Of a stretch of DNA of 64,000 bases, positions 5,809 to 64,000 are shown piece by piece. Below the pieces are notes generated by a model. It was not told the DNA's origin, did no database searches, and saw only the letters and a program-made list of their open reading frames with translations. How positions within the stretch are numbered: the stretch's first letter is position 1; the number at the start of each line of letters is the position of its first letter. Source of the stretch: Leucoraja ocellata (Eukaryota); NCBI GenBank assembly GCA_036785375.1, contig JAWMAR010000122.1, positions 5,890,001-5,954,000 on the forward strand. Direction: 5' to 3'. Made by a program: the position numbers and the translations under genes.

Positions 5809-5970
5809 TATGAGGTGCTGTTCCTCCAATTAGTGCTGGGCCTCACTCTGATAATGGAGGAGGCCCTAGACAAAAAGGTCAGATTGGGGCTGGGAGGGGG
5901 AGTTAAAGTTCTGAGCAACCGGCTGAGTGCTGAGCTTTCTCTTTAAGAACACAGACTGCTAGTTACACTG

Positions 5971-8589: not shown

Positions 8590-9192
8590 GTTAGTTAAAA
8601 TGTTGGTGGTATAACAGTTGGTGGATAAGAGCTTCATCTGAGCAATCTATACATAAGGTTTTGTTTTGAAGAACTTATGGTTTGATGGAGTGGGATTTTA
8701 GTCTGTGTAATGTGAGACTGAATTTTTTGTACTATGTTCAACTAAACTGCGAACAATGCTCAAACACAATTATTTTTTCTTAGATTTTGCTTGTCCTTTG
8801 ATTCAACATTTTATTTTCTGATGTATTTGTTTTTTTACAGTCATTGCAATACACCTTGTTCAGTCAAACTGTCCATTAATTTCCTGGCTCTTTCATGTAT
8901 TTTTGTGCTGCTCCGGAAGTTGTGATCATTATATAGTGATTTTTGTTCACCAATTATAGTTAACCAGCTGCTTCCATTCATAGGAGCATAAGCAGTCCCT
9001 TGGCATCCATATTAAATTAAGTTTGAATCCATGACTTGTTTGAATGCAACCATTGCTTTTTAATGCCAGTTTAAAATCTTGGATTTGGGTCTTTCAGGAG
9101 GGACTTGAACCTGCAACCTTTTTATTTGGGTCACAATGAGCATTTGTCTGGAGTCGGAGCCTCTAACCCAGATGTAATCATTATACATCTAG

Positions 9193-10537: not shown

Positions 10538-11304
10538 CTCTCTCCCCATCCCCCTACTCGGGACAAGGGCAGAGTCGTTATGCAATTTCTATTAGTTCTT
10601 TCCACTTCCAAACAAAAATGTGGTTGGATTATTCAGCATATGATCAGACTGTGTCAATAAATCCTGGACCATGGTAACATATATGCTTAACCATGCACAC
10701 TACAGATTGATACAAGCATGTTTTCTGTGAAGGACTGAAAATTACCATGACACGGCCATAGTATGGGTCGTTATTGCTAATGGCACAAAGCACTCTTGCT
10801 TCCCACATAATTTATCCACAACAAAATATACAGGTTGCAAGGAAATTTCTAAAGCTTTTTATGATAATAGCTGTTAAAACCGACTATACCCATCTGACAG
10901 GTTAAACATTACACTAACTGACAAGAGATGGCCAAAGCACATAACTGCAGCAAATGTTCTTTTGGTAATATGTTTAAAGGTGTCAAAACAAATAATAACA
11001 TTGGGAATTAAAACACGTTTGATTGCATTCCGTTATCAAACATAGTCAATGTTCGCTCTGAAGACCATGAAGCACAATAGGGTCAGGGTGTGTGTGAATC
11101 GGTGCGGGGTGGATAGATGGCGGAGGGTTGAGAAGGCAATCGGTGCAGAATGGATGGATTGAGGCAGGTGAATTAGTACATGTTGGTTGGAGTATGTAAA
11201 ATTGTGAGGGGAGAGCACGGGGGATGTCAGTGGTGTTGAAAGGTGGGATCAGTACGGGATGGATGGGGGGGGGGGATCAGTACAGGAATGGTGGGGATCA
11301 GTAC

Positions 11305-18670: not shown

Positions 18671-19399
18671 ATCCTGAATCTTTCTTTCCGGTTCATATTC
18701 ACGGACTGAGACAGTGAATAGCAGAAAATGAAAAGCCGATAAATCCGTCAGTCTTGCTACTCTCTCTGCTTCCATAGCTGCTTGCTGCTATGGACATCAT
18801 ATGAGTGTTCTAGCGGTAATTTTCGCAAGACAGTTTAGAAGACAGTCTGCAGAAGGGTCTGGACCCGAAACATCATCATTCTCTCCAGAGATGCTGCCTG
18901 TCACGCTGAGTTACTCCAGCATTTTGTGTCTATCTTCGGTTTAAAGCAGCATCCGCAGTTCCTTCTTACACACTCAGAAATAACATGTCGTTTCGATCTC
19001 TATCCCAATCTCCGAGATAACTTTGGACAGCATTCCTCAGTGATAGACACAAAATGCTGGAGTAACAACGGGCCAGGCAGCATCTCTGGAGAGCAGAAAT
19101 GGGTGACGTTTCGGGTCGAGACCCTTCTTCAATCTGAGTCAGGTGAGAGGGGAGACACAGAGAGATGAAAAGGTACAGAACAGATCAAAGCTATGATCTG
19201 ACCCGAAACGCCACCTATTCCTTTTCTCCAGAGATGCAGCCTTACCCGCCGAGATACTCCAGCATTGTATGTCGGCGTAAACCAGCAACTGCGGTACCTT
19301 CCTCTGTGAATTGAAATAACGATCTTGGGCCACTGAATTACACACGAACCTTTAATTATCAGTCATATAAAAAGTAACACAAAATCTAGCAGAACTCAC

Positions 19400-23088: not shown

Positions 23089-26000
23089 CAGTGCCCTCCA
23101 TAATGTTTGGGACAAAGACCCATCGTTGATTTATTTGCCTCTGTACTCCACAATTTGAGATTTGTAATAGGAAAAAATCACATGTGATTAAAGTACACAT
23201 TGTCAGATTTTAATAAAGGCCATTTTTATGCATTTTGGTTTCACCATGTAGAAATTACAGCAATGTTTGTACATAGCAAGGCTGTCAAGTCGGAGTTGGA
23301 GCAATTTTGGTGCTGCTGGAGTCGGTAAAAAAGTCCCGAATCCGACCTCAACATAAATTTCAGAGAATTACAATTTGTAATCATGTGTTGTTTTTCTGCT
23401 AACTGGTTAGCACGCAACAAAAGCTTTCCACTGCACCTTGCTACACATGACAATAAACTAAACTAAGTGATGAAGTTGATCAATGCGAGTACGGTAGTGG
23501 ATGTTGTCTACATGGATTTTATTAAGGCATTTGTTAAGGTTTCCCATGGTAGATTGATCCAGAAGATTAAGATGCATAAAATTCACACTGACATGGTTGT
23601 AAGGAATTATAGCTGACATTGATAGAAGATAAAAGGTTGTGGTTGAAGAACAATGTTCAGGCAGGCTTTCTGAGACCAATGGAGTTCCACAGGTATCGGC
23701 GCTGATACCTCTGTAATATACAAAGGACTTGGACATTAATGTAAATGCTTAGTTAGTAAGTTTGCAGATGGCACCAAAATTGATGAGTTTGTCAAGTGGG
23801 GAAGGCCATCAAAGTGTACAGTGGGACATGGATCAGCTACAGAAATTGTGGAGAAATGCAGAATATAATCTGAGCAAGTGTGAGGTGTTGAATGTAGGGA
23901 GATGGAATGTAAGGGGAATGACAGTTAATGACAAGATCGCTGATGTATGGAGGGATCTTGTGGTCCAAGTCCTTTGGTTCTTGAAAGTGGAAATGCAGGT
24001 AGATTAGTATAGGAGGCGTAAGGCATAATTGCTTTCATTGGTCAGGGCATTGAGTTTGAGTGGGGAAGTCATGCTGCAGATTTATAGGACTTCAATAACT
24101 CCACATTTGAAGTATTGTTTGCAGTTCTGATCACCCACTACAGGAAGGATGTGAGGCTTTGGATAGGATGCAGAAGAGGTTTACCAGATTGTTACCTGGA
24201 ACGGAAGATAATAGCTATCAGGAGAGGTTGGGCAAATTTTGATTGTTTTCTCTGGAGCGTCGGAGGTTGAAGGGAGATCTCAAAGTATATAACATTGAGA
24301 GGCGTAGATAAGGTAGACATGTAAACTTTTTTACTAGGGTATGTGTCAAATATGTGAGCGTAAGATGAAACCAGGAAAGTTTGAAGGAGCCAAGTAGGGC
24401 AATTAATTTTTAGGGGGTGCTAGTTTGCACTGTCAGTGGTGGCTGGCATTTGGTGGTATTTGAGACTTACTGATACACACATGGATAGGCAGGGGATGGA
24501 GGGATATGGATCGCATGCAGGCAGAAATTTGTTTAACTTGACATCATGTTTGACATAGACATTGAGGGCTGAAGAGCTATTTCCTTTGCTGTACTATTTT
24601 ATGTTCTGTGAAATGAGGTTTTTGACTAAGCTCTGCCGAGCACTATGCAGCCTCTGGGGCTGCTCCAGTTTCTTCACTTTTGTACTGGACCTCTATTCTG
24701 TTTGCCTGCTTTTGTTCCATCTCGAGGAGTGGAGCAATTGCTACCGTGCTTGACCTCTGTGGTGATAGTTGTTTCTAAGAAGTCTGTACAGAATTTTGTC
24801 CAGTGCACCAAACCACAACAGGCCAGTCATTTTAAACTTTTTTTGTGGAAGCTATTAGTAATTGTCCAAATTGCTGTTAATTTCATCTAAGATAAATTTG
24901 GATTAGTTTAGAGATACAACATGAAAATTGGCCCATCGTGCCACTGAGTCCATGCCAATCATTGATTACTCAATCACACTATTCATTTATCCCATGTGTC
25001 CATTCTCCATGCTAAAATTTAGAAGCCAATTATCCTATAAACCCACACATCTTTTGGATGAGAGAGAAAACGCGTGCAGCCAGAGAAACCCCACACATTC
25101 ACATGTGGAACATGCAAACTCCACACCACATTCGACGGTAGAATTGAACCTGTGTCTCTGACACTGCACCACTTTAAAGCAGAGTCAGTTATGGATGATT
25201 AAAGAGCACACTTGACGTGGTGTGTTGATGTTTAATGTGCCAAATAAGAGTGTTGTAAGTAAGCTTTATGCATACCAAGTGAAATACAGAGTGGCAGTAT
25301 AAATAAATAATTGGTTTAAACGGAAAAGAATCATGCTGAACATTTGTATGGTCTGAAGGAAGGTGGCTTGGCAGAACATAATTTAGAATTAACATGATGA
25401 CAGAAAGGACAAACCCCAGGAATAAAAATGGAGATAAGACCTGTTTAGGCTGGTCCAGAAGATTAATTCAAATGAGACCCATAGTGACTTGGGAATTGGA
25501 TCCAATACTGACTGTCATGAAGAGGATGCAATGGCAAAGATATTTTTATTACAGTAGGTTTGACTTGTGTTTGCAAGTGTATGATTTGCATGAAAATATA
25601 GATGGTCTCATTAGTTCATAAGATCATAAGTGATAGGAGCAGTATTAGGCCATTCGGCCCATCAAGTCTACTCCGCAATTCAATCCCCCCCCCCCATTCT
25701 TCTAAACCCCAGAGAGTATAGGGCCAGTGCCGTCAAACACTCATCATACGTTAACCTATTCATTCCTGGGATCATTTGTGTAAACTTCCTCTGGACCCTC
25801 TCCAGAGCCAGCACATGCTTCCTCAGATATGGTGCCCAAAACTGCTCACAATATTCCAACTGCGGCCTGACAAGCGCCTTATAGAGCTTCAGCATTACAT
25901 CCCTGTTTTGATACAAGCCCTTTCGAAATAAATGCCAGTATTGTGTTTGCTTTCTTTACTATCGATTGGACTTGCAGATTAACTTTTTGGGAATCCTGCA

Positions 26001-29000
26001 CCAGCACTCCCAAGTCCCTTTGCACCTTGAAGCTTCCCAATCCTTTGGCTTCCCACTAATATTTGCAATGTTATATGTCTTCTCTTTTAGTTTTATACTG
26101 TCCTTGGCATTTCTTGTCAGCCACAGTCGCCTCTTTCTCCCCGTAGAATTTTTCTTCCTGTTTGGAATGAAAAGATCCTACATCTTCTGAATTATTCCCA
26201 GAAATTCCTGCCATTGCTGTTCCTCTGCCATCACTGCTAGTGTCCCTTCCCAGTCAACTTTGGCCAGCTGCTCTCACATGTAGTCCCCTTTGTTCTGCTG
26301 CAATACCGACATGAAATGAAATTTGTGAATTTTGGATTGAGGGGCAGTCAAAGAACAAAGCAGAATATAGATCAGTACAGATATGTTGGAGAAATGGCAG
26401 AGGGTGTTTAATCAGAGTTTGGGATATTGTATTTTGGGGGATCAAATCCAAGGAATATACTAAATGGCTGGGCTCTTGGGACGGTGATGTACAAAGGGAT
26501 CTTTGGGTGTTTGTCCATAGCTCACTGAAAATAGCAACGCAAGTAGATAATGAGGTAAAGGAATATGGCATGCTTGCCATCATCGGTCAGGGCATTGAGT
26601 ATACAAGTTGGCAAATTGTGTTGCAGCTGTGCAAAATGTTTTGGTTCTGTTACATTTGGGGTATTCTGTCCAATTGTCCAATATAGGCAAGATGGAGAGA
26701 TTTCAGAGAAGGGTTTTACCAGAATGTTTTTGAAAAAAAACCACATGCAGTGCTAGAATAACGAGGCAGATCAGACAGCATCCCCCCACCCATGTTTTCT
26801 ACTGCTCATTGACCACTTTCTTTCTTAGACTCACTGCAATAGCCACGTGTCCTTTGTAAAAAATATAATCATAGTTTTCCTTGTCCTTGCCTTTCATCCC
26901 ACTAACTTCCACATTCAGCATATCCTTTATCTCTTCTGCCAACTATAACACGATCACACAACCAGCCTTATCTTGATCTCCCCACCCTTCTGCAGTGACT
27001 ACTCTCCATAACTGCTTGAACTGCTCATCATCCTGTTGGCACTTTCTCTGCTGGAGAGCAACACTTGTTCCTAAACATCTTCCCTCATCACCTTTCAGGG
27101 ACCTAAGCTGTTCTTCCAGGTTAGGTGAACATCCACATGCATCTCCTTCACCCTTGAATACTGCATCCAGTGCTGTTGATGTAGCCTCCTCAACTATTCC
27201 AAATGCAGAAGAGGCGACTAGTTTGCAGAGCATCTGAGCTCTGTCCACAATAGCAATCCTGAGATCCTGGCTAAATGCTATTTCAACTTCCCATTTCCAC
27301 ACTGACTTGTCCGTCTTTAACCTTTTTCACCACCAAAGTAAAGCCCAACACAAACTGAAAGAACAATACCTGGTGGAGGAAATTGATATGGAGAGGGCAT
27401 AGGTTTAAGGTGAGAGAGGAACGTTTTAGCCTGTCGAGGTAAATGAGGCAAGCCCAATAGCAACATTTCAGGGACATTTCAAAAGGTACATGGATATGAA
27501 AGGTTTTGGGGGGGGATATGGAACACCTTGATCAGTGTGATGAGTTGGACAGAAGGGCCTATTCCTGTGCTACATGGCTCTGACTAACATAGTAGATAAG
27601 GTCGTCTACAACCCAATAGTACAAATATTGAGCCTGAAATTTCAGGTAAACATCACCACTTGTTCTCCTCTTGGTCCTCTCATTTTTGTCCCCTTTCCCA
27701 TTAAACTCCCCCTCACCCGGATGACTACGTTTCTTATCTCTCCAACTTTAGTTTTAATCCATCATCTACCGACAATCTTCACTCATAGAAACATAGGAAA
27801 TAGGTGCAGGAGTAGGCATTCGGCACTTCGCGCCAGCTGATCATAGCTGATCATCCAAAATCAGAACCCCATTCCCGCTTTCTCCCCATATCCCTTAATT
27901 CCATTAGCCCTAAGAGCTATATCTAACTCTCTACATCCAGCAAATTGGCCTGCAATGCCTTTTGTAGTAGAGAATTCCACAGATTCACAACTCTCTCAGT
28001 GAAAAATGTTTTCCTCATCTGTCCTAAATGACTATCCCTCATTCTTACTCACTGTGTCCCCTCCCTCATATGGCACCATGTACCCGTCACCTCTCCCTTA
28101 ATAGTTCCCATTTATTACCATCTTTATCAGATTCTCAGTTTTCCGCTTTTGCGTCCCCACTCAATGCCCTCCATTCATTGTCTCCAACTTTGCCCTCCCC
28201 TTCCCCCACTTGGCTCCATCTATCTTCTTCCTTCTCTCCAGAGATGTGGCCTGTTACTAGTCGGAGTCGGATACACAAGAAATGAAGGAGTCGGAGTCGC
28301 GTGTTTTGGGTATCGACTCCACAACCCTGATATATTATCCCCCCATTTCAGGATTGAGCCAGTACCTTCAGCAGCCATACATGCCCAGGCCATAACACCA
28401 TGTTTCACAGATACGGTGGTATGCTTTGGATATTGGGCAGTTCCTTCTCTCCTCCATACTTTGCTCTTGCCATCAGTCGAATATAAGTTAATCTTCGTCT
28501 CATCTGTCCACTAGACCTTTTTCCAGAACTGTGGTTGCTCTTTTAAGTACTTCTTGGCAAACTGTAACCTGGCCATCCGATTTTTGCAGCTAACCAGTGG
28601 TTTGCATCTTGCAGTGTAGCGTCTGTATTTCTGTTCATGAAGTCTTCTGCATACAGTGGTCATTGACAAAATCACACCTGAAGAGTGTTTGTGGTCTGTC
28701 AGACAGGTGTTTGGGGATTTTCCTTAATTATAGAGAGAATTCTTCTGTCATCAGCTGTGGAGGTCTTCCTTGGTGTTCCAAATAGTTGATTTTGGTAAGC
28801 CTTAGGTTTGGCTAACAGTTTTATTCTTGGTTCTCATAAGTCTCATAATGGCTTATTTGACTTTTATAGGCAGAACTTTGGTTCTCGTGTTGATAAACAG
28901 CAATAAAAGTTTCCAAAGGTCATGGAAAGATGAGGTGCTGAGAGCTCTCTTAATTGCCATTAAGGAGGCAATTAAACACACCGGAGCAATTACAAACGCC

Positions 29001-29237
29001 TGTGAAGCCATGTGTCCCAAACATTGTGGTGCCCTGAAATGGGGGGACTATGTATAAACACAGCTGTAATTTCCACTTGGTGAAACCAAAATGTATAAAA
29101 ATGGCCTTTATTAAAATCTGACAATGTGCACTTTAACTGCATGTGTTTTTTTTTCTATTACAAATCTCTAATGGTGGAGTACAGAAGCAAATTAAATAAA
29201 CGATGGGTCTCTGTCCCAAACATTATGGAGGGCACTG
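23089..29237 (-). mobile_element. Tc1/mariner element split by a 5 kb insertion in its left TIR
   Basis: Left TIR CAGTGCCCTCCATAATGTTTGGGAC... 23089-23276 resumes at 28338 (TCCCCCCATTTCAGG). Right TIR ends CACTG|TA at 29237. Transposase remnants lie at 28350-28900. Confidence 0.85.
23277..28329. mobile_element. hAT-like element with ~5 kb of heterogeneous internal sequence
   Basis: Imperfect TIRs CAAGGCTGTCAAGTCGG / TCGACTCCACAACCCTG (12/17); GGAGTC subterminal repeats at both ends; degenerate 8-bp TSD GTACATAG / ATATATTA. Confidence 0.6.
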
Positions 29238-29399
29238 TATGAGGTGCTGTTCCTCCAATTAGTGCTGGGCCTCACTCTGATAATGGAGGAGGCCCTGGAC
29301 AAAAAGGTCAGATTGGGGCTGGGAGGGGGAGTTAAAGTTCTGAGCAACCGGCTGAGTGCTGAGCTTTCTCTTTAAGAACACAGACTGCTAGTTACACTG

Positions 29400-29772
29400 T
29401 AGAGTAAAACTTTCTCCCAATTTTGTTAGTGGGGGCATGAACATCGAATTCTCCCAATTTTGTTAGTGGGGGCATGAACATCGAATTCTCCCAATTTTGT
29501 TAGTTCCGTTTGGGGAGTCTGCATCCCGGGGGCATGAACATCGAATTCTCCCAATTTTGTTAGTCCTTGCTGTCTCCTCCCCTTCCTCAACCCCCCTGCT
29601 GTCTCCTCCCATCCCCCAGCCTTCGGGCTCCTCCTGCTTTTCCCTTTCTTGCCCCCACCAACCCCCACCCCCGATCAGTCTGAAGAAGGGTTTCGGCCCG
29701 AAACGTTGCCTATTTCCTTCGCTCCATAGATGCTGCTGCACCCGCTGAGTTTCTCCAGCTTTTTTGGGTAAC
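29400..29772 (+). mobile_element. Short Penelope-like pLTR insertion with 15-bp TSD and 37-bp tandem repeats at its 5' end
   Basis: TSD CTGCTAGTTACACTG on both sides; repeated unit TGGGGGCATGAACATCGAATTCTCCCAATTTTGTTAG. Confidence 0.8.
29680..29707 (+). ncRNA. Minimal hammerhead-ribozyme-like core in Penelope pLTR
   Basis: CUGAAGA-A-GGG-UUUCGG-CCC-GAAA-CG-UU: conserved CUGANGA/GAAA/UH core and palindromic ACGU at stem III; stem I is weak. Confidence 0.55.
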
Positions 29773-30089
29773 CTGCTAGTTACACTGCTGACACTATGGA
29801 AATTGACATGACATTGAAATTGACTGACTTCCGATTGCTTCCATCCACACTTAACTCTTTAATGTAACAGACTGCCTTTAGTATTTTAGCTTGCAGTAAC
29901 AAAATTACATGTAGCTACTAAAAAGAACTTTGCATTTGAAGGCAATTCATTGTATCACAGAGTGGCCGCTAGGTGGTTGGAGTAAATCCCTTACTCGCTT
30001 ATAGCAGACAATCTACAATAGCGAATACTATTTTCTCCCTGTGGTATGTTATAATGAGGGTTTACAATTGATTGCAGAATTGGTATGTT

Positions 30090-30820
30090 AATAGATTGAT
30101 ACAGATGGGGAGGGTATTTGATAAAGTACCGCATGGTGAGAGACCAGGTATGACTGCTCAAGGATAAAGGAGGAAATTTGTGCTTGGTCAGACGATGTGT
30201 GCAAGGTACTAAATGAATGTTTTCCATCTACATTCACCAAGGAGAGGGACATGGAGGACAGTGAGATCAGTATGGAGAGTACTAGCATGCAAAGACATTT
30301 TCAAATTAAGGAGGAGGTGGTGTTGGGGTTCTTAAAGAGAATTAAGGTGGATGAATTCCCTGAGCCTGATGCGATCTGTCCCAACTTATTAAGTGGAGAT
30401 TTGCGAAAATACTTCTATCTTCTCTAGCTACAAGCCAAAGTCCTGGAGGACTGGAGTCGATGGTGTTTCTTTGTTTACGAAGGGAAGTGGAGAGAATCCA
30501 GGAAGTTACAGGCCAGTGAGCCTCATGTCAGTGGTAGGGAAGCTATTGGAGAGGATTCTGTGGGATAGGATTTCTTCCCATAGGAAGGTGGGCTAATGAG
30601 GGACCAACCTCATGGCTTTGTAACTGGTAGATCATGTCTTCCAAACTTGATTGAGTTTTTTGAGGTGACAATGAAGATGATTGAAGGGGGTATGGCGGTG
30701 GATGTTTTCTACATGGAGTTTAGTTAGGCGGGAAGTTGAGTAAGTCTCCCACGGCAGACTGATCCAGAAGATGAGGGATATCGTGGGCTGAAACGCCTGT
30801 TCCTGTGCTGCACTTTTCTG
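30090..30820 (+). mobile_element. Decayed CR1 ORF2 fragment (duplicate at ~6660-7390)
   Basis: NPGSYRPVSLMSVVGKLLERIL and HGFVTGRSCL.NLIEFFE motifs. Confidence 0.8.
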
Positions 30821-31817
30821 TTGTATAAATGTGTGAACCTTTGAAATCCATTAATATTATACTTGCCTCCTATAGTGGAGAGCAAAACTGAACTTTTTTG
30901 TTGCTATAGTTATGGATGATCATTTATGATTGAGAATTGTCCAGAGTAGTTTGTTAACAATGCAAGGTTACTTTTGCCATATGGAATGATGACTGGGTAG
31001 CAATAGATTATCAGTGGAAAATCTGCAATTGGGTTATTTTACTATGTTATATTGAGGATTCATAACAGGCAAAATGATGGTGATGATCAGTTTGTACTGA
31101 TGTTTCGTACTGAACTTAATTGAAGACTTAAATGATCAACACTGAATATCCTTATGGGCTTTGACCAGAAGCAAAGCCAATGATGAACATAGTGTTAAAA
31201 AAATTTAAGTTCTGACATATGATCCGTGTTTCTCTGCACTATTTATTGCATATTCCTTTGCCTTGTTTCTTCTATACAAAGGTGGCACCTCGTACCTCTG
31301 TAGATGGAATTCCATTTTATGTTTTGGCCTAGTTAAGTATTCCACTGATACCTTTTGCTGCCATAGTAATTTTTCACTATCAACCAAAAAAACCTTTTCC
31401 TCATCCAGCAGTACTGAGAATTTTTGTAATACTCTGTATGACTTCCATGCTGTCTGGTTGTTTATCTTGACATTAACTACAGTTTAAGTCATTTTGTGCT
31501 TTAATTTCTCAAAGTAAAAGTAAATGTCATTAAAAATTTAGCTTTAAATAATGCTGATTTTCTTAAAAAATAATGTGGATGAAAGTCTCAGGTTGCTTTT
31601 TTGTGTTGAAATCTTGTAAAGTCACTTCCTTTAGTTGCATCATTGACTCAAGGCATGTGTTTTGCTTTCCACAGAGACTGGCCTGCTAAATATTTCCAGA
31701 ACATTGAGATGATTTTTATTTCAAAACATTTTAATTTCAGATTTTCATTTTCATAGCCAGTATTTTGATTTTTCATTTCATTTATTTTTTAATCTCTTCA
31801 TTTTCTTTTATCTTCAG

Positions 31818-32018
31818 GAAGGTGAAATGCCAATCCAAGATTTATTAAATTTGTATGGTTATGGGAAGACTGTGCCATTTCCTGGTGATGATGATGAGGA
31901 GGATGATGATGATGAAGTGGAGGAAGATGATGATGGAGATGAAGGAGATAATGAAGAAAATAGTGGAAGCAGTGAGGTTCCAGAGACAGAGGATCTACCT
32001 GAGATAAATATAAACCAG
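31818..32018 (+). CDS. MIER1: MIER1 exon 4, acidic region (EGEMPIQDLLNLYGY...EININQ)
   Basis: Polypyrimidine TCTTCAG|GAA...CAG|GTTAGT; human has EGDMPIHELLSLYGY; 201 nt, phase 0-0. Confidence 0.93.
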
Positions 32019-32621
32019 GTTAGTTAAAATGTTGGTGGTATAACAGTTGGTGGATAAGAGCTTCATCTGAGCAATCTATACATAAGGTTTTGTTTTGAAG
32101 AACTTATGGTTTGATGGAGTGGGATTTTAGTCTGTGTAATGTGAGACTGAATTTTTTGTACTATGTTCAACTAAACTGCGAACAATGCTCAAACACAATT
32201 ATTTTTTCTTAGATTTTGCTTGTCCTTTGATTCAACATTTTATTTTCTGATGTATTTGTTTTTTTACAGTCATTGCAATACACCTTGTTCAGTCAAACTG
32301 TCCATTAATTTCCTGGCTCTTTCATGTATTTTTGTGCTGCTCCGGAAGTTGTGATCATTATATAGTGATTTTTGTTCACCAATTATAGTTAACCAGCTGC
32401 TTCCATTCATAGGAGCATAAGCAGTCCCTTGGCATCCATATTAAATTAAGTTTGAATCCATGACTTGTTTGAATGCAACCATTGCTTTTTAATGCCAGTT
32501 TAAAATCTTGGATTTGGGTCTTTCAGGAGGGACTTGAACCTGCAACCTTTTTATTTGGGTCACAATGAGCATTTGTCTGGAGTCGGAGCCTCTAACCCAG
32601 ATGTAATCATTATACATCTAG

Positions 32622-33966
32622 GGTAGACAAAAATGCTGGAGAAACTCAGCGGGTGCGGCAGCATCTATGGAGCGAAGGAAATAGGCAAAGTTTTGGGCCA
32701 AAATCCTTCCTAAGACTGATGCCGGGTGGGGGGGGGGCGGGTATAAAAAGGAAGGGAAGAGGGAGAGCTGAGAAGGGGAGGAGACATCAAGGGCAACTGG
32801 AAATTGGAGGTCAATGTTCAGGCCACTGGGATGCAGACTGCCCAAGCGGAATATGAGGTGCTGCGCCTCCAGTTTCCGGTGATGCTCACTCTGTCAATGG
32901 ACGTGGCCCAGGACAGAAAGGTTGGATTCGGAATGGGAGGGTGAGTTGAAGTGCTGAGCCACAGGGAGATCAGGTTGGTTAATGCGGACCGAGCGGAGGT
33001 GTTCGGCGGAATGATCGCCAAGCCTACGCTTGGTCTCACCGATGTAGATCAGCTGACATTTAGAGCAGCAGATGCAATAGATGAGGTTGGAGGAGATACA
33101 GGTGAACCTCTGTCGCACCTGGAACGACTGCTTGGGTCCTTGAATGGAGTCGAGGGGGGAGGTAAAGCGACCAGTGTAGCATCTCTTGCGGTTGCAAGGG
33201 AAAGTGCCCGGGGAGGGGGTGGGAAGGTGGGAAGGGAAGAATTGACGAAAATGACTGAGGACTATTTGTTGTATGTGACGGCTAGTGTGATGGAAGGTGA
33301 GGACTATAGGGCCTTTGTTCTGAGTAGGGGGATGGGGAGAGGGAGAGCAATGTTGCAGGGCATTGAAGAGACCCTGGTGAGAGCCTCATTTATGGTAGGG
33401 GAGGGGAACCCCCGTTCCTGAAGAATGAGGACATTTCCGATGCCCTGGTGTGGAACACCTCATCCTGGGAGCAGATGCGGCGTAGATGGAGGAATTGGGA
33501 GTAGGGGATGGAGTCCTTACAGGAAGCAGGGTGGGAAGAAGTGTAGTCTAGATAGCCATGGGAGTCAATGGGTTTATAGTGGATGTTGGTCAAAAGCCTA
33601 TCACCTGCGATGGAGATAGTGAGGTCAAGAAATGGTAGGGAAGTGTCGGAAATGGTCCAGGCGTATTTGAGTGCTGGATGGAAGTTAGTGGCGAAGTTGA
33701 TGAAGTTAGTGAGCTGTGTGTGGGTGCAGGAGGTAGCACCAATGCAATCGTCGATGTAGCAGAGGTAGAGGTCGGGGATGGGGCCCTGGTACGTCTCGAA
33801 CCTTGTTCGATGTACCCTACAAAGAGGCAGGCATAACTGGGGCCCATGCGCGTGCCCATAGCTACGCCTTGTGTCTGGAAGAAATGGGAGGTCATATGAA
33901 AAGTTATTGAGGGTAACGACTAATTCCGCTAGGCGGAGGAGCATATCAGTGGACGGGTTCTCCGGT
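32622..33966 (-). mobile_element. Penelope-like retroelement (RT + GIY-YIG + pLTR), 5'-truncated and frameshifted
   Basis: ORFs 33390-34040, 33590-33895 and 32894-33118 contain GVAMGTRMGPSYA, YIDD, LPFLDL, YKP.D.H.YL and LIY..YIGET. Confidence 0.9.
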
Positions 33967-34671
33967 CTCTCTCCCCATCCCCCTACTCGGGACAAGGGCA
34001 GAGTCGTTATGCAATTTCTATTAGTTCTTTCCACTTCCAAACAAAAATGTGGTTGGATTATTCAGCATATGATCAGACTGTGTCAATAAATCCTGGACCA
34101 TGGTAACATATATGCTTAACCATGCACACTACAGATTGATACAAGCATGTTTTCTGTGAAGGACTGAAAATTACCATGACACGGCCATAGTATGGGTCGT
34201 TATTGCTAATGGCACAAAGCACTCTTGCTTCCCACATAATTTATCCACAACAAAATATACAGGTTGCAAGGAAATTTCTAAAGCTTTTTATGATAATAGC
34301 TGTTAAAACCGACTATACCCATCTGACAGGTTAAACATTACACTAACTGACAAGAGATGGCCAAAGCACATAACTGCAGCAAATGTTCTTTTGGTAATAT
34401 GTTTAAAGGTGTCAAAACAAATAATAACATTGGGAATTAAAACACGTTTGATTGCATTCCGTTATCAAACATAGTCAATGTTCGCTCTGAAGACCATGAA
34501 GCACAATAGGGTCAGGGTGTGTGTGAATCGGTGCGGGGTGGATAGATGGCGGAGGGTTGAGAAGGCAATCGGTGCAGAATGGATGGATTGAGGCAGGTGA
34601 ATTAGTACATGTTGGTTGGAGTATGTAAAATTGTGAGGGGAGAGCACGGGGGATGTCAGTGGTGTTGAAAG

Positions 34672-35225
34672 GTGGGATCAGTACGGGATGGATGGGGGGG
34701 GGGGATCAGTACAGGAATGGTGGGGATCAGTACAGGATGAATGGGGGTAGACAAAAATGCTGGAGAAATTCAGCGGGTGAGGCAGCATCTATGGAGCGAA
34801 GGAAATAGGCAACGTTTCGGGTCTATACCCTTCTTCATACTGTCCCCCCCCCCCCCCCATTCTTCTTGAATGGGGAGATCAGTACAGGATGGATGGGGGG
34901 GATCAGTACAGGATGAATGGGGGGGGGGGGGGGTCAGGACAGTGGAACGGAGGATATGTGCAGGATGAATGGGGGATCACTACAGGATGAATGAGTTGAT
35001 CAGTATAGGATGAATGAGGGATCAGTACGGGGTGCATGAGGGGATCAGTACAGGATGAATGGGTGATCAGTAAAAGATGAATGGGGAGATCACTACAGGA
35101 TAAATGGGGAGGGATTGGTGCCGAGTAAATGGAGGGTGGGTCAGTATGGGATGAATGGGAGGATCAGTGCAGTATGAATGGGCGAAGAAGTACAGGATGG
35201 ATGGGAAGAGGGGTCAGTACAGGGA
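34672..35225 (+). repeat. Degenerate ~21-23 bp G-rich minisatellite (GGATGAATGGGGGGATCAGTACA) with a pLTR fragment inside (~34747-34842)
   Basis: Many imperfect copies are visible, with long G runs. Confidence 0.8.
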
Positions 35226-35632: not shown

Positions 35633-35703
35633 GTGCAGCTGCTTCAAACGGCGGTATGAGACCTCCCTCTCCCCCTCCCTCTCTCCCTCTCCTTCCCACC
35701 TCC

Positions 35704-35845
35704 CGGCCTCGGCGTGCGAGAGGGGTTGTTTGAAAGCGCTGTTGGCGGATTTGCAAGCAGCGGCGGTTATCAGGACGATAGTGGCCGCTGCCTGCATATT
35801 CGCCAACGGCGCTTTCAAAACAACCCCTCTCGCACGCCGAGGCCG
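35704..35845. repeat. GC-rich inverted repeat with ~61-bp arms
   Basis: 35704-35764 versus the reverse complement of 35784-35845: 4 mismatches and 1 gap. Confidence 0.85.
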
Positions 35846-36344
35846 AGAGGAGGGAGGGCGGGGTGCGGGAGGAGGAGGCAGTGGAGCCGCTGTCGCGGCC
35901 GCCGCTGCTGCTGTTCGGTGCCCATTTGCTCCGACCCTTCGTCACCATGCACCTAGTATCTTTGCCCCGCAATACAGCCGCCTCTGACATGAAACATCAC
36001 GTTCCTTTTCTCCAGAGATATTGCCTGACCCGTGGAGTTACTCCAGTTTTTTGTGTCTATCGGTATAAACCAGTATCTGCGTGCCAAGCCGGGCAAAATG
36101 ACTCGCCGTTTAGTTTGCCCGGCGGCACTTCGGGTAGTCAATGGCACCCGGGTAACCGCTAATTTCGAGCCCTGAACTAGTGGTCTGGCACCACCTTTAA
36201 TCTGGATAAAATTACAAAAGTACACTTAAAGCCGGTATCTCAGCTCCTCGGAGGCCTTAACCTCTGTTGGTCCAGCAAAATGAATAATCCAGTAAGACTC
36301 TGGAACCGAGTATGCCAGAAAAACGATGGTGTACCTGGACTTTG

Positions 36345-36980
36345 CAGCACATGTTAAAATAGACCAAAGTCAACATGGTTATTGTGAAGGGGAGATCTTG
36401 CCTGACAAATCTTTTGGAATTCTTTGAGGAAGTAAATAGTAAGATAGACAAAGGTGAGTTAGTGGATGTTGTTTACCTGGATTTTCAAAAGGTTATTGAT
36501 AAGGTGCTGAGCATGAGGCTGCTACAGAAGATGAGAGTCCATCGTATAAGAGGGAAGATACTAGCATGGATAGAAGTAGAAACAAAGAACTACAGATGCT
36601 GGTTGATACCAAAGATAGAAACAAAGTGCTGGTGTAACTCAGGTGGGTCAGGCAGGATCTCTGGAGGAAATGGATGGGTGACATTTCAGGTTGGGACCCG
36701 AAATATCGTTGATCCTTTTCTGCCAGAGATGCTGCTTGACCCGCTGAATTACTCCAGCACTTAGTGTCTATCTTTAGCATGGATAGAAGATTTGCTGAAT
36801 GAGCGAAAGCAAGGGGCGGAAATAAAGAGGGCTTTTTCTGGTTGGCTGCAAGTGACTAGTGGTGTTAAGGGATCGTTGCTGGAACCGCTACTTTTCACGT
36901 TGTATATCAATGAATTGGATGAGGGAACTGAAGGCTTTGGGGTCAGGTTTGCGGATTGTATGAAGATGGGTGTAGGGGCA
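36345..36980 (+). mobile_element. CR1 RT fragment with inverted-pair pLTR insert 36577-36774
   Basis: KGRSCLTNLLEFFEEV..VDVVYLDFQK; the insert is flanked by the 15-bp TSD TAGCATGGATAGAAG (36562-36576 / 36775-36789). Confidence 0.85.
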
Positions 36981-41466: not shown

Positions 41467-42877
41467 CAGGCACTGCCTACCCTGACTAAAATTATAAAAT
41501 GGTAATTACTAAATATAAATAAAGGCATGGGACAATTATGCCTATCTAAGAGATCGATCTCTTAGGTGGGCATAATTCTTCGTGCCTTTCATCCGCATTA
41601 CTTGCAACACGCAAAGGTCTGTGCAGCCCACGTGCCGTCAGCGCTGCTTGAAGCCGTCAATGACAAGCGGGGCAGAAATTCTGCCTTTACTGTACGGCGC
41701 AGGGCGCAGCAGCCTACTGCGCATGCGCAGCGCTAGTTTCTTGGTGGGTTTTTTCAATTGTGGATTGACATTATCTTACGCGTATTTTAAGAAACAAAGA
41801 GAGAAGAATGGAGTTCATGTACCGATAATGTGACAAGTACATTTCTTGGTGCTATATGTTTTTAAATACCGTATTTCCCAGGGTGGGGGGGAATTCCTTT
41901 CACAGCGTTTGGGGAGTCTGGCCCGGGGTAAAGTTGCGGGGAGGGCAGGAGCATTGTGAAGGAGGGAATCGGGATCATGCCAGTAACCCACATACGACGC
42001 TCCTTGCACGGAGCCACCGCATTGAGGCCGGGGTGGGGGGAGAAATAGCTCGGGTGGCTGAGAGCGGCCGCCGGGCCGGACAGCGGAACCAGCCACCACC
42101 TCTGCGCCTTCTGCTGGCCGCCGCTCACCTTTGGCAGCTCTCCGTCTAAAAACCTCTCTCCTGCTGCTTGCTGGCCTCACTCATGTCAGCCGCTTCCAGC
42201 AAATCTTTAAATTCCAACAACGAGATTGAGGTTACTCGGCTGTGGGAATTTAAGGATTTGCGGGAAGCGGCTGACATGAGCGAAGTCGGCGAGCGGCAGG
42301 CGAGAGGTATTCAGACGGAGAGCACTGCCAGAGGTGAGCGGGCCGGCAGAAGGCGCAAAACTGGCTGCCAGTTCTGCTGTCGGGTCCTGGTGGCTGCTCG
42401 CAGCTACCCTAGCTGCTTCCCTCCCTGGCCACAATGCGGTGGCTCCGCGTCCGGAGCTCCGCAGCAGCGGTGAGTGAGTAAGTTACTGGCATGATCCATG
42501 ACCACCTCCTTCTCAACACACCTGCCCTCCCCTCAACTTTACCCCTGGCACAGACTCTCCATACGCTGTGAAAGGAACTCTCCCCCAAATTGGTCCCTTG
42601 AACAAGTGTTGTCATTCAATAAGATGACAACTGATTCATCTTGTCCCGGTGTGCTCCCGTTTTTCCCACCATCTCTCTACCTGCTGTCACCCTTCACCCC
42701 GCACCCATTCAGTAATTCAGAATAAAGGAGACTTGGAAGCCTTGGGCAAATTGAATTGTTACTGTCTTTATTTTTAATTTTTATGGGGAGAACATTCTGC
42801 GCATGCGCGGTTTAAGTTATTTTTTTTTTTAGCCGACTGACTGCCTACCCTGAGTAATTACTCACGACACGTGCCTG
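41467..42877. mobile_element. Non-autonomous hAT-like DNA transposon (1411 bp) inserted in a Penelope pLTR
   Basis: Termini CAGGCAC...GTGCCTG; 8-bp TSD CCACAGAT (41459-41466 / 42878-42885); subterminal direct repeat ACTGCCTACCCTGA (41472, 42840). Confidence 0.85.
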
Positions 42878-42919: not shown

Positions 42920-44000
42920 GAACAGTTTGGTTTTGGAGAGGGAAGGCGGTGCTCTCACTCACAGTTTGTGCTTATTACGAAGTTGGGACGGGGTTTCAGA
43001 AGCAGATTAAAAACTGGAGCTACCGTCATGAATTTATCATCAGTATTTGATGCTACCTGGCATGAAAGCCACCCACCGAATGATTTGGTATGCCAAGACT
43101 CTCAGCGCATTCAGCGGCAAATAAATTTAACTTGAGATCATCTACTCAACAACTATCTGTCATGTGAGCAAGCCTCCCACTGATTCCCAGAGGTGTTATT
43201 TATGTTGCCATTGCTAGAGGAAGCAAGTTAAAAAATATTTGAGCAACTGACACCCATAAGTGTGCTGCAGTCAAAAGGAACCGTGGATTTAATCAACATC
43301 CAATTCACAATAACTTAGCAAAGCCCCCTCATAAATAAAGCCCTCTCAGAAGACATGCTCTTATTTGCTGATTTACAGAAAATGACATACAGTGCTGGAA
43401 TAACTCAGTGGGTCAAGCAGCATGCCTGAGCTGCTGAGTTACTCCAGCAGTTTGTCTTTGTTCCCCATCGGTACACTGTTCTGGACCTGGCATCCCATCT
43501 GAAGAAAATGATGCTGGGGAAAAAAATCAAGTTTTCCAAAAACATTTTGCCCATGAGCATCATCCTGGTATCTCATGGTATGCCTCATCTAATTAAAACA
43601 CTCAAAATTTGGAACCTTCAAGACTTCTCAAACTGTGTGACTATTATAACTGGGCTGCATTACCCTGCCTGCTATTCACTGTAATTCTGATGACCTCTCA
43701 GTTAAAAAATGTATCATGGATTTAATCAACATCCAATTCACTATAACTTAGCAAAGCCACCTCACAAATAATGCCCTCTTAGAAAACATGTTCTTATCTG
43801 CTAAGCAGCAGTCAGTACCGTGCGGGTGGCGCCCCCTATCCAGATTAAAGAAAAAGCAGCATGCATCCAGTGCATGAAACGGGTATTTCGTCAATGGAAC
43901 ATACAGATACATTTAGCTTTGACTTCAATCACGGACCAAGTTCAAATAGGACAGAATCTGTACTGGCCAGGAATGATGAGACCACTTGGTTTACAAATGG
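42920..44000 (+). mobile_element. Highly decayed non-CR1 LINE (possibly Vingi/I/Jockey-like) RT remnant
   Basis: GFRSRLKTGATVMNLSSVFDATWHE resembles the KTGAVFVDLSAAYDTVWH RT motif; family assignment is weak. Confidence 0.4.
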
Positions 44001-56671: not shown

Positions 56672-56923
<252 letters not shown>

Positions 56924-57219
56924 TGATAATTGGACAATAATAATTCTAAAACTGGAATCTAAAAAAGATTGAAATTTCAACCAGAAAAATCGAACATTTT
57001 CATGCCTCATCTGCAATTCATAATGCTGGCAGGCCAATATGTGATTCTCGACACATCAGTGCAGTTGACTTTTAATTGCCTCCTAGAATTCAGGAACAAT
57101 TAGAGATAGATAATAAATCCTGACATTAGCCGTGCCATCCCTGTGTGAATAAATCAAAAATTTCAAATAATTATAATGCAGTTAATGTACAATACAGATT
57201 TTAAAAGATCAATTTGAAG

Positions 57220-58320
57220 GATAATTGTGAGAGGAATAGATTGGATAGACGCACAGAGACTCTTGCCTACAGTAGGGGAATCAGGACCCACAGGACATGG
57301 GTTTAAGGTGAGGAGGGAAAGGTTTATTAGGAATCTGAGGGGTAACTTTTTCACGCAAAGGGTGGTAGGTGTATGGAACGAGCTGCCAGAGGAGGTAGTT
57401 GAGGCAGGTGCTATCGCAACATTTCAGAATCATTTAGACCGGAACATGGATAGGACAAGTTTAGAGGGATATGGGTTTAGTGTAGATGACACATGTTGGC
57501 CGGTGTGGGCAAGTTGGGCCGTGGTGCCTGTTCCCATGCTGTAAGACTCTGACTCTATGATAGCCTTATGCTTTCCTTCAAAACAGCATTGTGGAATAAC
57601 TAAACTGAGAAACCAAACAATGCATGCATTATGTTAGAATGGTAAGGAAGCTATTACAGAGGATTCTACGAGTTCAAATGTACTCATTTGGACTGGCTAA
57701 TTTGCGATAGTCTGCATGGCCTTATCCCCAGCAAGTCATATTTATGAACGATTGAGTTTTTTGAGTTGTCGAAGGTGATTGATGAGGTAGACCAGTGGAA
57801 TTGTCTCTTTGGATATTAGTAAGGCATTTGATAATGTCTGTTATTCTGGCTGGAGGTCTGTGACTAGTGGAGTACAGGAACCTCTGCTGGGACCTTTGTT
57901 ACGTGTGATATATATAACTAACTTGGACGTAAATATGAATGGGTAAGTTAGTAGATTTGCAGATGACACCAAATTTAAGGACCGTGGGGAAGGCTGTCAA
58001 AGTATACATGGGCAAATAGCTCACTTGGTTAGGCTGCATTTCAAATGTGTGTTCTAGTCGCCCCATTACAGGAAGGATGTCAGAGGTTAAGGGGAGAGCT
58101 AATGAAAGTATGTAAAATTGAGAGGTATAGATAGGTTGAAACCTTTTTTTCCTCTGGTGGATATGTCAAAAACTAGAGGGCATAGTTTTAAGGTGAGACG
58201 GTAAAAGTTTAAATGAGATGTGCATGGCAACTTTTTTTACACAATGGTGAGTGTTGCAGGAGCGTTGGGGGAGGCAGATAAGAGTGGTATTTAAGAGGTT
58301 TTTATAAAGACGTGGTTTGA
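57220..58320 (+). mobile_element. Two CR1 fragments (3' end 57220-57560; decayed RT 57690-58320)
   Basis: NLRGNFFTQRVVGVWNELPEEVVEAG; RFADDTK remnant. Confidence 0.75.
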
Positions 58321-58970
58321 ACAGTTATGTATCGTGCATTCACCAGTGTCAAAATAAAATTTGCCTCCTACATTTTTACCTACTCGTCATAAACTAATGC
58401 TCTCTATTACTTAACATTTCCGAACTGGGGGTAAACGACTGTCACTATCTAACGCCCCTCATGATTTTATAAACTTTATCGGGTTCACTCTTAGTCCCTG
58501 AAGATTCAGCAGAAATAATGGTTTGCCGAACCTCTCCATTTAACTAACATGCTGTAATCCAAGCAATGTCCTTCACCATTTTCCAGCACCGTTTTCACCT
58601 CCACATCCATCCTTAATGTGGTGACCTGAACTGCTTGCAATACTCCAAATGTGGCCTAGCTGAAGTTTTATACAGTTGTCACATGAATTCCCAACTTTGG
58701 GACTAAATGCCCATACCAATCAAGGCACCTCTTTACCAACCTACCCACGTGTTGACACTTTCAGGGAAATATGGAGTTGCATCCCAAGATCTCTTTGTAC
58801 TTCAATGCTCCTAAAGGACTGGCAATTTACTGTATTCTTGCATCTTGCATATAGTCTTCAAAAATGCTTCACCTTGCATTTGTCTGCTATAAACTCTCTC
58901 TGCTAGGTACACAAAAATGCTGGAGAAACTCAGCGGGTGCAGCAGCATCTCTGGAGCGAAGGAAATAGGT

Positions 58971-58998
58971 AACGTTTCAGGCCGAAACCCTTCTTCAG
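58971..58998 (-). ncRNA. Minimal hammerhead-ribozyme-like core (left arm)
   Basis: Reverse complement CUGAAGA-AGG-GUUUCGG-CCU-GAAA-CG-UU. Confidence 0.55.
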
Positions 58999-59295
58999 AC
59001 TGATAGGGGGTGGCGGGGAGAAGGAAGGAAAAAGGAGGAGGAGGAGCCCGAGGGCTGGGGGATGGGAGGAGACAGCTCGAGGGCTAAGGAAGGGGAGGAG
59101 ACAGCAAGGGCTAACAAAATTGGGAGAATTCAATGTTCATGCAATGTCCTTCATGCCCAATGAACATTGAATTCTCCCAATTTTGTTAGCCCTTGCTGTC
59201 TCCTCCCCTTCCTTAGCCCTCGAGCTGTCTCCTCCCATCCCCCAGCCCTCGGGCTCCTCCTTTTTCCTTCCTTTTCCCCGCCACCCCCTATCAGT

Positions 59296-59323
59296 CTGAA
59301 GAAGGGTTTCTGCCCGAAACGTT
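59296..59323 (+). ncRNA. Minimal hammerhead-ribozyme-like core (right arm)
   Basis: CUGAAGA-A-GGG-UUUCUG-CCC-GAAA-CG-UU. Confidence 0.55.
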
Positions 59324-60261
59324 ACCTATTTCCTTCGCTCCATAGATGCTGCTGCACCCGCTGAGTTTCTCCAGCATTTTTGTGTACCTTCGATTTTCCA
59401 GCATTTGCAGTTCCTTCTTGAACAACTCTCTCTGCTAGTTCTTCACCCAAGTTTCCAACTGATCTTTATCTTGCTGTATCCTTTGACAGCCTTCCTCACT
59501 ATCCAAGTCCACCATTTTTTGTGTCACTAGTATAAGAATGAATAATAATTTTTGACTCAAAATTAATGTCTAATGCCATCTGTTAGATCTTGTGGCGTTA
59601 ATAATAATATAATTACTTTAAAATAAGACATGGCTGAAATAATTTCAGTTTCCAGGCTTTTTTTAAATGCATATTCTTGTGAATTATCGAATTATCTGCG
59701 ATAAAGGTATTATTTCTTTACTATTTTCACAATATGTAAATGTGTTAAAAATTTATATTTGCAATTCAAGCATTAGCTTTTGCACCAGGTTCAGAACTTC
59801 AACAATTTTTTAAGAGATGCTATAAAGACACACATAGAATTCATTAGATATTTTAATTGCATTCAGTTAATTGTGAAATTATTTTCTTTGAACTTTAATT
59901 TGTTTAAAACCTAATTTTGAACATAATAAAGTTTTAAGAAAAAGAATTCAGGTAAAATTCTTTTGAAAATGAATTTTGAGATTAAATGTTTATCAGCAAA
60001 CAAACCAAAAACCATATTTTTAAATGAGAATATTAACTCTAAACATTGGCAACTGGTGATAACACTTATGGATGAGATGGTTAATAAAATAATAGATATA
60101 ATAATCCTGGAATAGTCCAACACCAAATTATGAGATGAAAATGGATGGCATGGCAAGATAACATTTTGCTTTCACTAAGGGAAGTAAATAAGATTTTCGT
60201 TATCTGTGCACTTAACTTTGACACAGTTTAAAGTATATTGTTACTGATTTGATTCTGTTAA

Positions 60262-60399
<138 letters not shown>

Positions 60400-61703: not shown

Positions 61704-62352
61704 GACACTTAAATTAACTGTCCCAAACTTTATCACATTCTTCCTATAGGGTGTCAAATGCCACCTTCATGATACTGTCCACCTGACTTGCCACTATCAG
61801 GGGACCATGCACTTGTACTCCTATTAATGTTCTGTTGCACAATTTAAAAAACCCATATGATGAGGAGGTTTGATCACTCTATTCTGCAACACTCTCCAAG
61901 CTCAAGCATTTACTGAGCAAGTGACCTAGTTTGACATACCAAAGTGCAATACCTCTCACTTTTTTAGAGTTAAATTCCATTGGCCCACCATCCCAACTGA
62001 TCACTGCTTGTTGTAAACTTAGATATAGAAGCAGAGTCATACAGCATGGAAACTTATCTATGCTGACCATGATGTCCTCATCTAAGCTGGACCCCTTTTG
62101 CACAAAGGGTGGTAGGTATATGGGAGGAGCTGCCAGAGGATGCAGTTGAGGCTGATACTATCGCAACATTTAACAGACATTTGGACAGGTACACGAATAG
62201 GAAAGGTTTAAAGGCCAATGGGCCAAACGCAGGCAGATGGAGCATCTTGGTCGGTGTGGGCAGGTTGGACCAAATGGTTTGTTTCCATGCTGGAAGACTG
62301 ACTCTAAAATTGGAAATCGTGCAGCAGAGATTGAAGGCTTGAGCCACAATTT

Positions 62353-63584
62353 CCTCCATAATGTTTGGGACAAAGACCCATCATTTATTTATTTGCCTCT
62401 GTAAGAGAACTCTCAGCACCTATTCTTTTCACCAGTCTTTCCATCACCTTTGGAAACTTTTATTGCTGTTGATCAACATGAGGACCAAAGTTGTGCCAAG
62501 GAAAGTCAAAGAAGCCAGTATGAGCCTGAGAAACAAGAATACAACTGTTGGAGACATCATCCAAAACTCATGCTTACCAAAATCAACTGTTTGGAACATC
62601 ATTAAGAAGAAAGAGAGCACTGGTAAGCTTACTAATCGCAAAGGCAACACTACAAGATGCAAACCACTGGTTAGCTTCAAAAATAGGATGGCCAGGTTAC
62701 AGTTTGCCAAGAAGTACTTAAAAGAGCATCCACAATTCTGGAAAAAGGCCTAGTGGACAGATGAGACGAAGATTACTTATATCAGAGTGATGGCAAGAGC
62801 AAAGTATGGAGGAAAGAAGGAACTGCCCAAGATCCAAAGCATACCACCTCATCTGTGAAACACCGTGGTGGGGGTGTTATGCCTGGGCATGTATGGCTGC
62901 TGGAGCTACTGGCTCACTTATCTTAATTGATGATACAACTGCTGATGGTAGTAGCATAATGAATTCGGAAGTGTATAGACACATGCTATCTGCTCAAGTT
63001 CAAACAAATACCTCAAAACTCATTGGCCGGCGGTTCATTCTACAGCAAGACAATGATCCCAAACATACTGCTAAAGCAACAAAGGAGTTTTTCAAAGCTA
63101 AAAAAATGGTCAATTCTTGAGTGGCCAAGTCAATCACCCGATCTGAACCCAATTGAGCATGCCTTTTATATGCTGAAGAGAAAACTGAAGGGGACAAGCA
63201 TAAGCTAAAGATGGCTACAATACAGGCCTGGCAGAGCATCACCGGAGAAGACACCCAGCAACTGGTGATGTCCATGAATCACAGACTTCAAGCAGTCATT
63301 GTATGCAAAGGATATGCAACAAAATTCTAAACATGACTACTTTCCTTTGCATGACATTGCTGTGTTCCAAACATTATTGTGCGCTAAAATGGGGGGACTA
63401 TGTATAAACACTGCTGTAATTTCTACATGGTGAAACCAAAATGTATAAAAATGGCCTTTATTAAAATCTGACAACGTGCACTTTAACCACATGTGACTTT
63501 TTCTATTACAAATCTCAAATTGTGAAGTACAGAGGCAAATAAATAAATGATGAGTCTTTGTCCCAAACATTATGGAGGGCACTG
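62353..63584 (+). mobile_element. Tc1/mariner element with decayed DDE transposase
   Basis: TIR remnants at both ends (left one internally deleted); HTH KSTVWNIIKK, WTDETK, LQQDNDPKH and WPSQSPDLNPIEH; stop at ~62751 plus frameshifts. Same family as 23089-29237. Confidence 0.92.
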
Positions 63585-64000
63585 TGGGCAGGTTCCTCTT
63601 TGGAATGTTGGCAGCTCAGGGATGACCTTATTGAGATGTACAAAAAATTATGAGATGCATGGATGCAATGAATTCTCAGTCTTTTTCTCGAAGGAGAGGA
63701 TTTTAAAACTAGAAGGTATAGGATTATGGTAAGAAGATAGAGATTTAAGAGGGATCACAGCAGCACTCTGAGATAGTTCATATCTGGAAAGACTTGCCAG
63801 ATGAAGTTGTAGAAGTGGATATAATTGTGACTTAAAAGGCATTTGGTCAAAAATATATGAATATAAAGGTTTAGAGGTTTACGGGCCAAATGCAGGCAAA
63901 TGGGACTAGCACAACACACTAACAGCCGACATGCTAGTTTAGTTTAGAGATACAGCATGGATACCAATCCTTCGGCCCACTGAGTCTGCGCTGACCAACA

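Follow-up and report, generated by a model that had tools for sequence, protein, structure and literature searches.

What kind of element left the palindrome of about 0.5 kb that sits in an intron of a MIER-family gene, between two SANT-domain exons, and how did its two arms come to face each other? The earlier note had read this insertion, with its opposed hammerhead-like cores, as a very young, non-autonomous fold-back retroelement bearing ribozymes. We analyzed the whole 64,000-nt stretch of DNA in which it lies (hereafter, the window) together with related copies in the 3.44-Gb genome. The data favor a different reading: the insertion is probably a single 5'-truncated copy of an autonomous Neptune-type EN+ Penelope-like element (PLE), its layout of inverted arm, tail and TSD likely being produced by double target-priming, and its ribozyme is predicted to be inert.

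Layout, host intron and age of the insertion

Near-perfect inverted arms, a 19-bp spacer, a one-sided tail and a 15-bp TSD had all been described, and the coordinates confirmed each of them (Table 1). The arms measure 236 and 230 bp and are identical at 226 of 230 aligned bases, with 4 mismatches and one 6-nt indel; no other inverted pair of the 64,000-nt window with its members within 2 kb is as long as the two that they make up. The tail is 34 nt long, or 36 nt if the AG common to TSD and arm is counted as TSD. That the unit holds no coding sequence was not exact, because each arm opens with the last 9 codons and the stop of an ORF. The smaller inverted pairs noticed at 19043-19300, 36577-36774 and 43380-43460 are indeed present, but as older relatives: they match the arm over 31-95 nt, at 79-84% identity.

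Table 1 Features of the palindromic insertion (58892..59438) and its surroundings, in window positions
Feature	Position	Strand	Remark
Left TSD copy, 15 bp, AACTCTCTCTGCTAG	58892-58906	+	Last 2 nt (AG) double as start of the inverted arm
Right TSD copy, AACTCTCTCTGCTAG	59424-59438	+	15/15 match to left copy
Inverted arm, second copy of the PLE 3' end, spanning the final ORF codons up to 36 nt before the 3' end	58905-59140	-	
Sense arm: 3' UTR/pLTR with pyrimidine tract, TCAG-T-CTGA, hammerhead and conserved downstream hairpin	59160-59389	+	
Spacer, one-off junction filler, 19 nt	59141-59159	none	
PLE tail, unpaired, on one arm only	59390-59423	+	Also in 30/30 loci
End of the RT-GIY-YIG ORF: final 9 codons and stop (MNIEFSQFC*)	59160-59189	+	
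Mirror copy of the last 9 PLE ORF codons and stop	59111-59140	-	
13-nt flank stretch with an exact match in the filler	58563-58575	+	Possible template
Minimal type I hammerhead core: CUGAAGA, bulged A, 3-bp stem II, GAAA-CG-UU, 2-bp stem I	59296-59323	+	
Minimal type I hammerhead core	58998-58971	-	Stem II closed by a G-U pair
Intron of the MIER-family host gene, flanked by two SANT-domain exons	56873-60270	+	Donor GT 56873, acceptor AG 60270

The flank stretch that matches the filler lies 329 nt upstream, and while it matches over 13 nt, no match exceeded 9 nt in 112 control windows of 1 kb. The filler can alternatively be read as a stutter of the PLE's own sequence; under either origin it is a repair scar and not a conserved loop. 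The flanks themselves belong to an older LINE-like relic, a paralogue of which (L022) runs unbroken across the insertion site and contains the TSD once.

The proposed placement between the SANT exons on the + strand was upheld by the splice donor and acceptor of the 3.4-kb GT..AG intron. The host gene, presumably MIER1 rather than MIER2/3, gave a weak Pfam match to MIER1_3_C (E 0.0011, below cutoff), and a PDB search with the second exon returned other SANT domains only. The suggestion of a long dsRNA in the host pre-mRNA is supported as a prediction: the arms would form a duplex of ~230 bp and would bury the sole sense core. A pyrimidine tract in the host sense orientation (59250-59295, +) ends in CAG just 5' of the hammerhead core and resembles a 3' splice site; it is predicted to be masked by the inverted arm. 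Thousands of such near-perfect hairpins in introns would represent a large predicted dsRNA load for ADAR.

The insertion does not appear very young, as had been supposed. Arm divergence is 1.7% (4/230 sites) in addition to the indel, and unique left-flank contigs of organisms A (X1, X3), B (X4) and C (X5) enter the arm by 22 nt and stop there, an overlap that covers the left junction only and is shorter than our 31-letter bridging rule. Within 629 nt of flank, organism B (X4) differs at 9 positions and organism C (X5) at 13; X1 (organism A) may be the source sample. Since an empty allele would lack a match to those 22 nt, the insertion is probably common to the three species labels, and neither very young nor polymorphic.

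Parent element and its copies

The proposed Penelope origin was borne out by sister copies. Upstream of the point where the arm starts, other copies run on into a GIY-YIG ORF and then into an RT with YIDD. The codons MNIEFSQFC* also end the endonuclease ORF in L002, L004, L007, L008 and L013, and, contiguous with the same 3' UTR, the nuclease motif LIYCIRC..YIGET with CCHH residues was found in L035 and L002 and the RT with YIDD in L036, L038 and L039. The latter three, the longest copies fetched, are 5'-truncated, and the upstream pLTR was not seen in them. Pfam matches on sister copies (GIY-YIG, E 0.003; RVT_1, E 5e-6) were both under cutoff. Between RT and nuclease, L002, L035 and L066 carry the linker CNRKKCNTC (CX4CX2C), and a CX2-5CxxC linker at this place is described as a feature of the Neptune clade (PMC8557442). 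Judged from sequence, the parent would therefore be an autonomous EN+ PLE, placed in the Neptune type by its linker motif. The features of EN+ PLEs are present: a single RT and C-terminal GIY-YIG ORF (in the sister copies), an inverted 5'-truncated copy, a tail of 30-40 nt and a pLTR hammerhead motif. The insertion itself consists of the 3' 264 nt of the PLE plus the inverted second copy and keeps only the last 9 ORF codons; it thus derives from an autonomous RT+EN element, truncated at the 5' end, and is not the non-autonomous retroelement proposed before. A description of this PLE family in cartilaginous fish was not found in the openly accessible literature.

The 34-nt tail tag has at least 17,010 exact copies in the 3.44-Gb genome. 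The arm-spacer-arm junction of the window insertion, for which the earlier note had advised a genome search, matched once in 3.44 Gb, which refutes a self-propagating family for this unit; a loose pattern for the same-codon break found one further locus, from another subfamily and with an 8-nt spacer. Many copies sharing the same ends and junction, as in a SINE/MITE-like family, were not found in this search.

Two samples of copies were compared. Sample 1 was drawn from contig C1, where the first 100 loci with the tail tag were taken; 99 of these were usable (L130 was dropped) and 49 were fold-back; after 7 sister copies were dropped and the window copy was added, it held 46 palindromes and 47 solos (92 kept plus the window copy). 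For sample 2, 128 further loci were chosen by two subfamily variants, 13 of them were dropped for look-alike 3' flanks, and the 115 kept comprised 47 palindromes and 68 solos, 45 of the solos being mappable and 23, longer than 400 nt, left unmapped. The layout of inverted arm, tail and TSD was found in 92 of 207 sampled copies (about 45%; palindrome shares are lower bounds, as the script missed a few palindromes), so that the inverted-pLTR insertion is, as had been suspected, a recurring product. As a genomic fossil the window insertion is ordinary, since truncated head-to-head insertions of this very common PLE number in the thousands. It is atypical in two respects: its adjacent arms, reaching to about -270, are the longest among the 93 palindromes, the other 92 reaching no further than -143, and its junction lies away from any micro-palindrome. 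Inverted partners of ~230 nt also occur, at greater distance, in L003 and L024.

This layout is the standard one of PLEs (PMC8557442, Craig et al. 2021; PMC3846280). As described for Pen2a_Av of Adineta vaga and other EN+ PLEs, an inverted 5'-truncated copy adjoins a sense copy, the tail of 30-40 nt is one-sided, the TSD surrounds the whole unit and short palindromes lie at many junctions (PMC3846280, PMC8557442). In contrast to the rotifer PLEs as reported, the window copy has a TSD of 15 bp rather than 8-10 bp and is without the ORF body (PMC3846280). The window locus is consequently of little weight in itself, the layout being published and thousands like it being present in the genome; natural end products of this kind nevertheless bear on the way in which inverted arms and one-sided tails arise in PLEs.

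Origin of the inverted arms

The 93 palindromes share several regularities. In 36/46 palindromes of sample 1 and 38/47 of sample 2 (74/93 in total), the start of the inverted arm falls 34-38 nt inside the 3' end. A TSD of 11-19 bp accompanies 41/46 and 39/47 palindromes (80/93), as compared with 12/47 and 18/45 mappable solos, at a false rate of 1/100. The left (inverted) arm is the longer one in 28 palindromes (16 + 12) and the right arm in 18 (8 + 10), while 47 (22 + 25) have equal arms; since either arm may be the longer, neither was simply copied from the other. Minor alleles common to both arms numbered 33, whereas 2,000 shuffles gave 5.7 and never more than 15. The end of the TSD overlaps the inverted arm by a mean of 1.43 nt at 37 junctions, about 0.33 nt being expected by chance, although this estimate of left microhomology comes from a TSD finder that maximizes length. 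Fold points concentrate on two micro-palindromes that belong to the hammerhead region. GTTTCGG-N-CCGAAAC is used most often, and there 497 tail-oriented copies have G as the centre base and 679 have C (42:58), whereas fold-back of tail-primed cDNA alone would give C only.

We therefore consider double target-priming the probable origin of the window insertion. The GIY-YIG nuclease would nick both strands about 15 nt apart; one 3'-OH would prime reverse transcription at the end of the tail, and the other, on RNA of the same source element, at a site about 36 nt more internal. Both cDNAs would be extended 5'-ward, usually to -128..-139 and in the window copy to about -270, the region of the ORF stop, and would then be joined head to head via microhomology or filler, with the TSD arising from gap filling. 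A G-G mismatch between the annealed cDNAs, repaired either way, could produce the mixed centre base. The fixed -36 start, the TSD enrichment and the 42:58 centre base make this scheme directly testable. Some of its support can be mimicked: later centre deletions and spacer flipping may yield unequal arms and a mixed centre base, spacer flipping is seen at a junction with 2,077 copies (see below), and the symmetric palindromes (22/46 and 25/47) fit fold-back equally well.

In L1 twin priming, both target strands prime cDNA, the junction carries microhomology or filler, and each cDNA is copied from a different part of the RNA. The cDNAs of the window insertion would, in contrast, cover the same part, so that either one RNA was copied twice or two RNAs were used. 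Two different RNAs per palindrome were considered and rejected, as the arms were concordant at -103, -96, -50 and -49 (18 shared, 0 discordant), a comparison in which two RNAs from one locus are indistinguishable by arm variants. No twin-priming account of PLEs was found in the openly accessible literature. The closest described activity is that of Poseidon PAc of Anolis (Frangieh et al. 2024, PMC11167929), whose protein, predicted to be a dimer, nicks and extends both target strands and starts reverse transcription at two RNA sites bounding the tail, which fits the arm ends in the window. PAc belongs to another clade, that paper leaves inverted insertions and TSDs unexplained, and in the window the ORF ends, rather than starts, at the 5' edge of the kept segment (PMC11167929).

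The main rival gives the same element and layout by self-priming: a cDNA or antisense template folds at a short palindrome and serves as its own template, after which nuclease cleavage 36 nt from the end resolves the product. Such self-priming, including that of an antisense template, was put forward for rotifer PLEs (PMC3846280), and the one-sided tail has been attributed to EN-mediated resolution (PMC8557442). It accounts for the concentration of fold points on micro-palindromes intrinsic to the pLTR and for the variants that the arms have in common, but the inverted arm exceeds the tail arm in 28/93 palindromes, G occupies the centre in 42%, clean TSDs are enriched among palindromes, and the window copy has a 19-nt filler in place of a palindromic centre. 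On balance we consider self-priming unlikely, yet the alternative to be taken most seriously beside double target-priming.

Far less probable is an origin from separate insertions of two copies into one site, or from a single copy that later underwent inverted duplication: although the family is dense and some target sites were struck repeatedly (L058, L121, L132), a single TSD encloses both arms, these break at the identical codon and have variants in common, and the -36 start recurs in 74/93 palindromes.

Other observations concern where the copies begin and where they land. The 5' ends of solos peak at -128..-138 (16/47 and 24/68), at TCAGTCT, and those of long arms likewise at -128..-139. 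This peak marks either an initiator-like start site or an RT stop; internal promoters have been described (PMC2377424). Spliced templates were rejected as a source of the peak around -135, because the solos keep ATCAG/TCAG 5' of the possible acceptor and have no common upstream exon. Independent insertions were found near the same position of other repeats (L058, L121 and L132; L086, L089, L102 and L108), which suggests a target-site preference. One palindrome, L254 (C3:12778070-12778283), has the tail on both arms.

Hammerhead motifs and fold-back units

Each strand carries one minimal hammerhead core, as had been claimed, in the pattern CUGAAGA-A-GGG..CCC-GAAA-CG-UU, and the estimate of about 2 bp for stem I of the monomer was correct. 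The core nucleotides are intact on the + arm. Like published minimal hammerheads, the motif has a bulged nucleotide between 9 and 10.1, the G10.1-C11.1 pair and a palindromic CG (15.2-16.2); a 2-bp helix I also occurs in D. virilis, and pairs of motifs on opposite strands, 100-700 bp apart, have been reported in Schistosoma (PMC4209133). It differs from the examples given there in its stem II of only 3 bp, theirs being larger, and in the U at position 17 (PMC4209133).

Folding gave a less favorable picture. An Rfam scan of the window yielded 0 hits at the gathering score. When the whole + transcript was folded, the hammerhead stems had P = 0 and 93% of the core was paired to the other arm (MFE -489 kcal/mol). 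The right arm folded alone gave P 0.02 for stem II and 0.0001 for stem I, the latter ranging from 0.0001 to 0.016 across single-arm constructs. Neither the full transcript nor the single arms are thus predicted to arrange stems I-III round the core as in an active type I hammerhead. Cofolding of two cores gave a best structure other than the stem III dimer, which says little either way. The idea that the opposed cores act as a dimer fails for a single RNA: whichever strand is transcribed, it contains one core in the sense orientation together with the antisense of that core, and the antisense arm is transcribed first. The core of the window insertion is thus predicted to be inert as a ribozyme, locked inside the hairpin, and we infer that the opposed cores are a by-product of the inversion. 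Ribozyme activity of the parent element, with the help of protein, is possible.

These results bear directly on the view that the insertion belongs to a self-propagating, non-autonomous fold-back element with active opposed hammerheads. Fold-back units of this PLE family can spread, one junction having 2,077 copies, and re-mobilization is also conceivable for the -120 palindrome, with at least 1,176 dispersed copies; the intact + arm core would suit such an element as well. Yet the window junction is unique, the sole sense core in each transcript is predicted to be buried, and the spreading 2,077-copy junction lacks CUGA. A cleavage footprint was likewise rejected: 5' ends at the cut site numbered 5/41 in sample 1 and only 1/25 in sample 2 (p 0.61), for which the prediction had been preset. 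Moreover, dimer cleavage of minimal hammerhead motifs is reported to be weak in vitro (PMC4209133), and ribozyme cleavage to be dispensable for PLE insertion (PMC11167929). We regard an element of this kind as very improbable here. Non-LTR retrozymes are likewise non-coding, hammerhead-bearing and pLTR-derived, but they are described as head-to-tail tandems with same-strand cores, whereas the window unit is single and head-to-head with cores on opposite strands (bioRxiv 10.64898/2026.07.22.740005); no head-to-tail repeats with same-strand cores were found in it.

The dispersed palindromes mentioned above, at least 1,176 in number and ~190 bp long, fold at GTTTCGG-N-CCGAAAC inside hammerhead stem II. 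The 2,077 exact copies share a fold-back junction that differs from that of the window insertion, though it comes from the same PLE family, and this clustered derivative is a more unusual lead than the window locus. Among the first 100 copies listed, 41 lie on C1 (20.1-22.5 Mb), 49 on C5 (14.3-18.2 Mb) and 0 on C2-C4, in contrast to a tail variant that is spread over C1-C5; the junction was also found on C6. In 27/30 loci (L134-L163) its core sits inside 66-bp tandem arrays derived from a sister pLTR. Thirteen of the 27 array loci start at the pLTR head and 7 end in the tail (23 and 9 of 540 controls, respectively), and they lie inside old pLTR relics that show no clear TSD. Outside such arrays, TSD and tail are both present on plain copies (L102, L104, L107, L114, L149), and the 4-nt spacer is flipped in about half of the copies. 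These data show that fold-back products of this family can spread as units, for this junction possibly by local conversion. A wider scheme may be put forward tentatively: PLE integration would be a symmetric two-cDNA process in which the micro-palindromes of the hammerhead region (TCAG-T-CTGA, GTTTCGG-C-CCGAAAC) anneal the cDNAs, so that the motif matters as DNA, and fold-backs would have founded the ribozyme-less 2,077-copy repeat, which spreads locally by converting pLTR relics. We hold this as a possibility, with more doubt than confidence.

Elsewhere in the window, two older fold-back structures (41884-42587 and 35671-35878) are unrelated to the arm by local search. An 11.3-kb segment occurs twice, at 1-11304 and 23438-34733, with 99.7% identity and an offset of 23,437 nt, and is either a recent segmental duplication or an assembly artefact. 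Tc1/mariner-like transposase remnants with inverted ends of 60 nt lie at 62343-63590.
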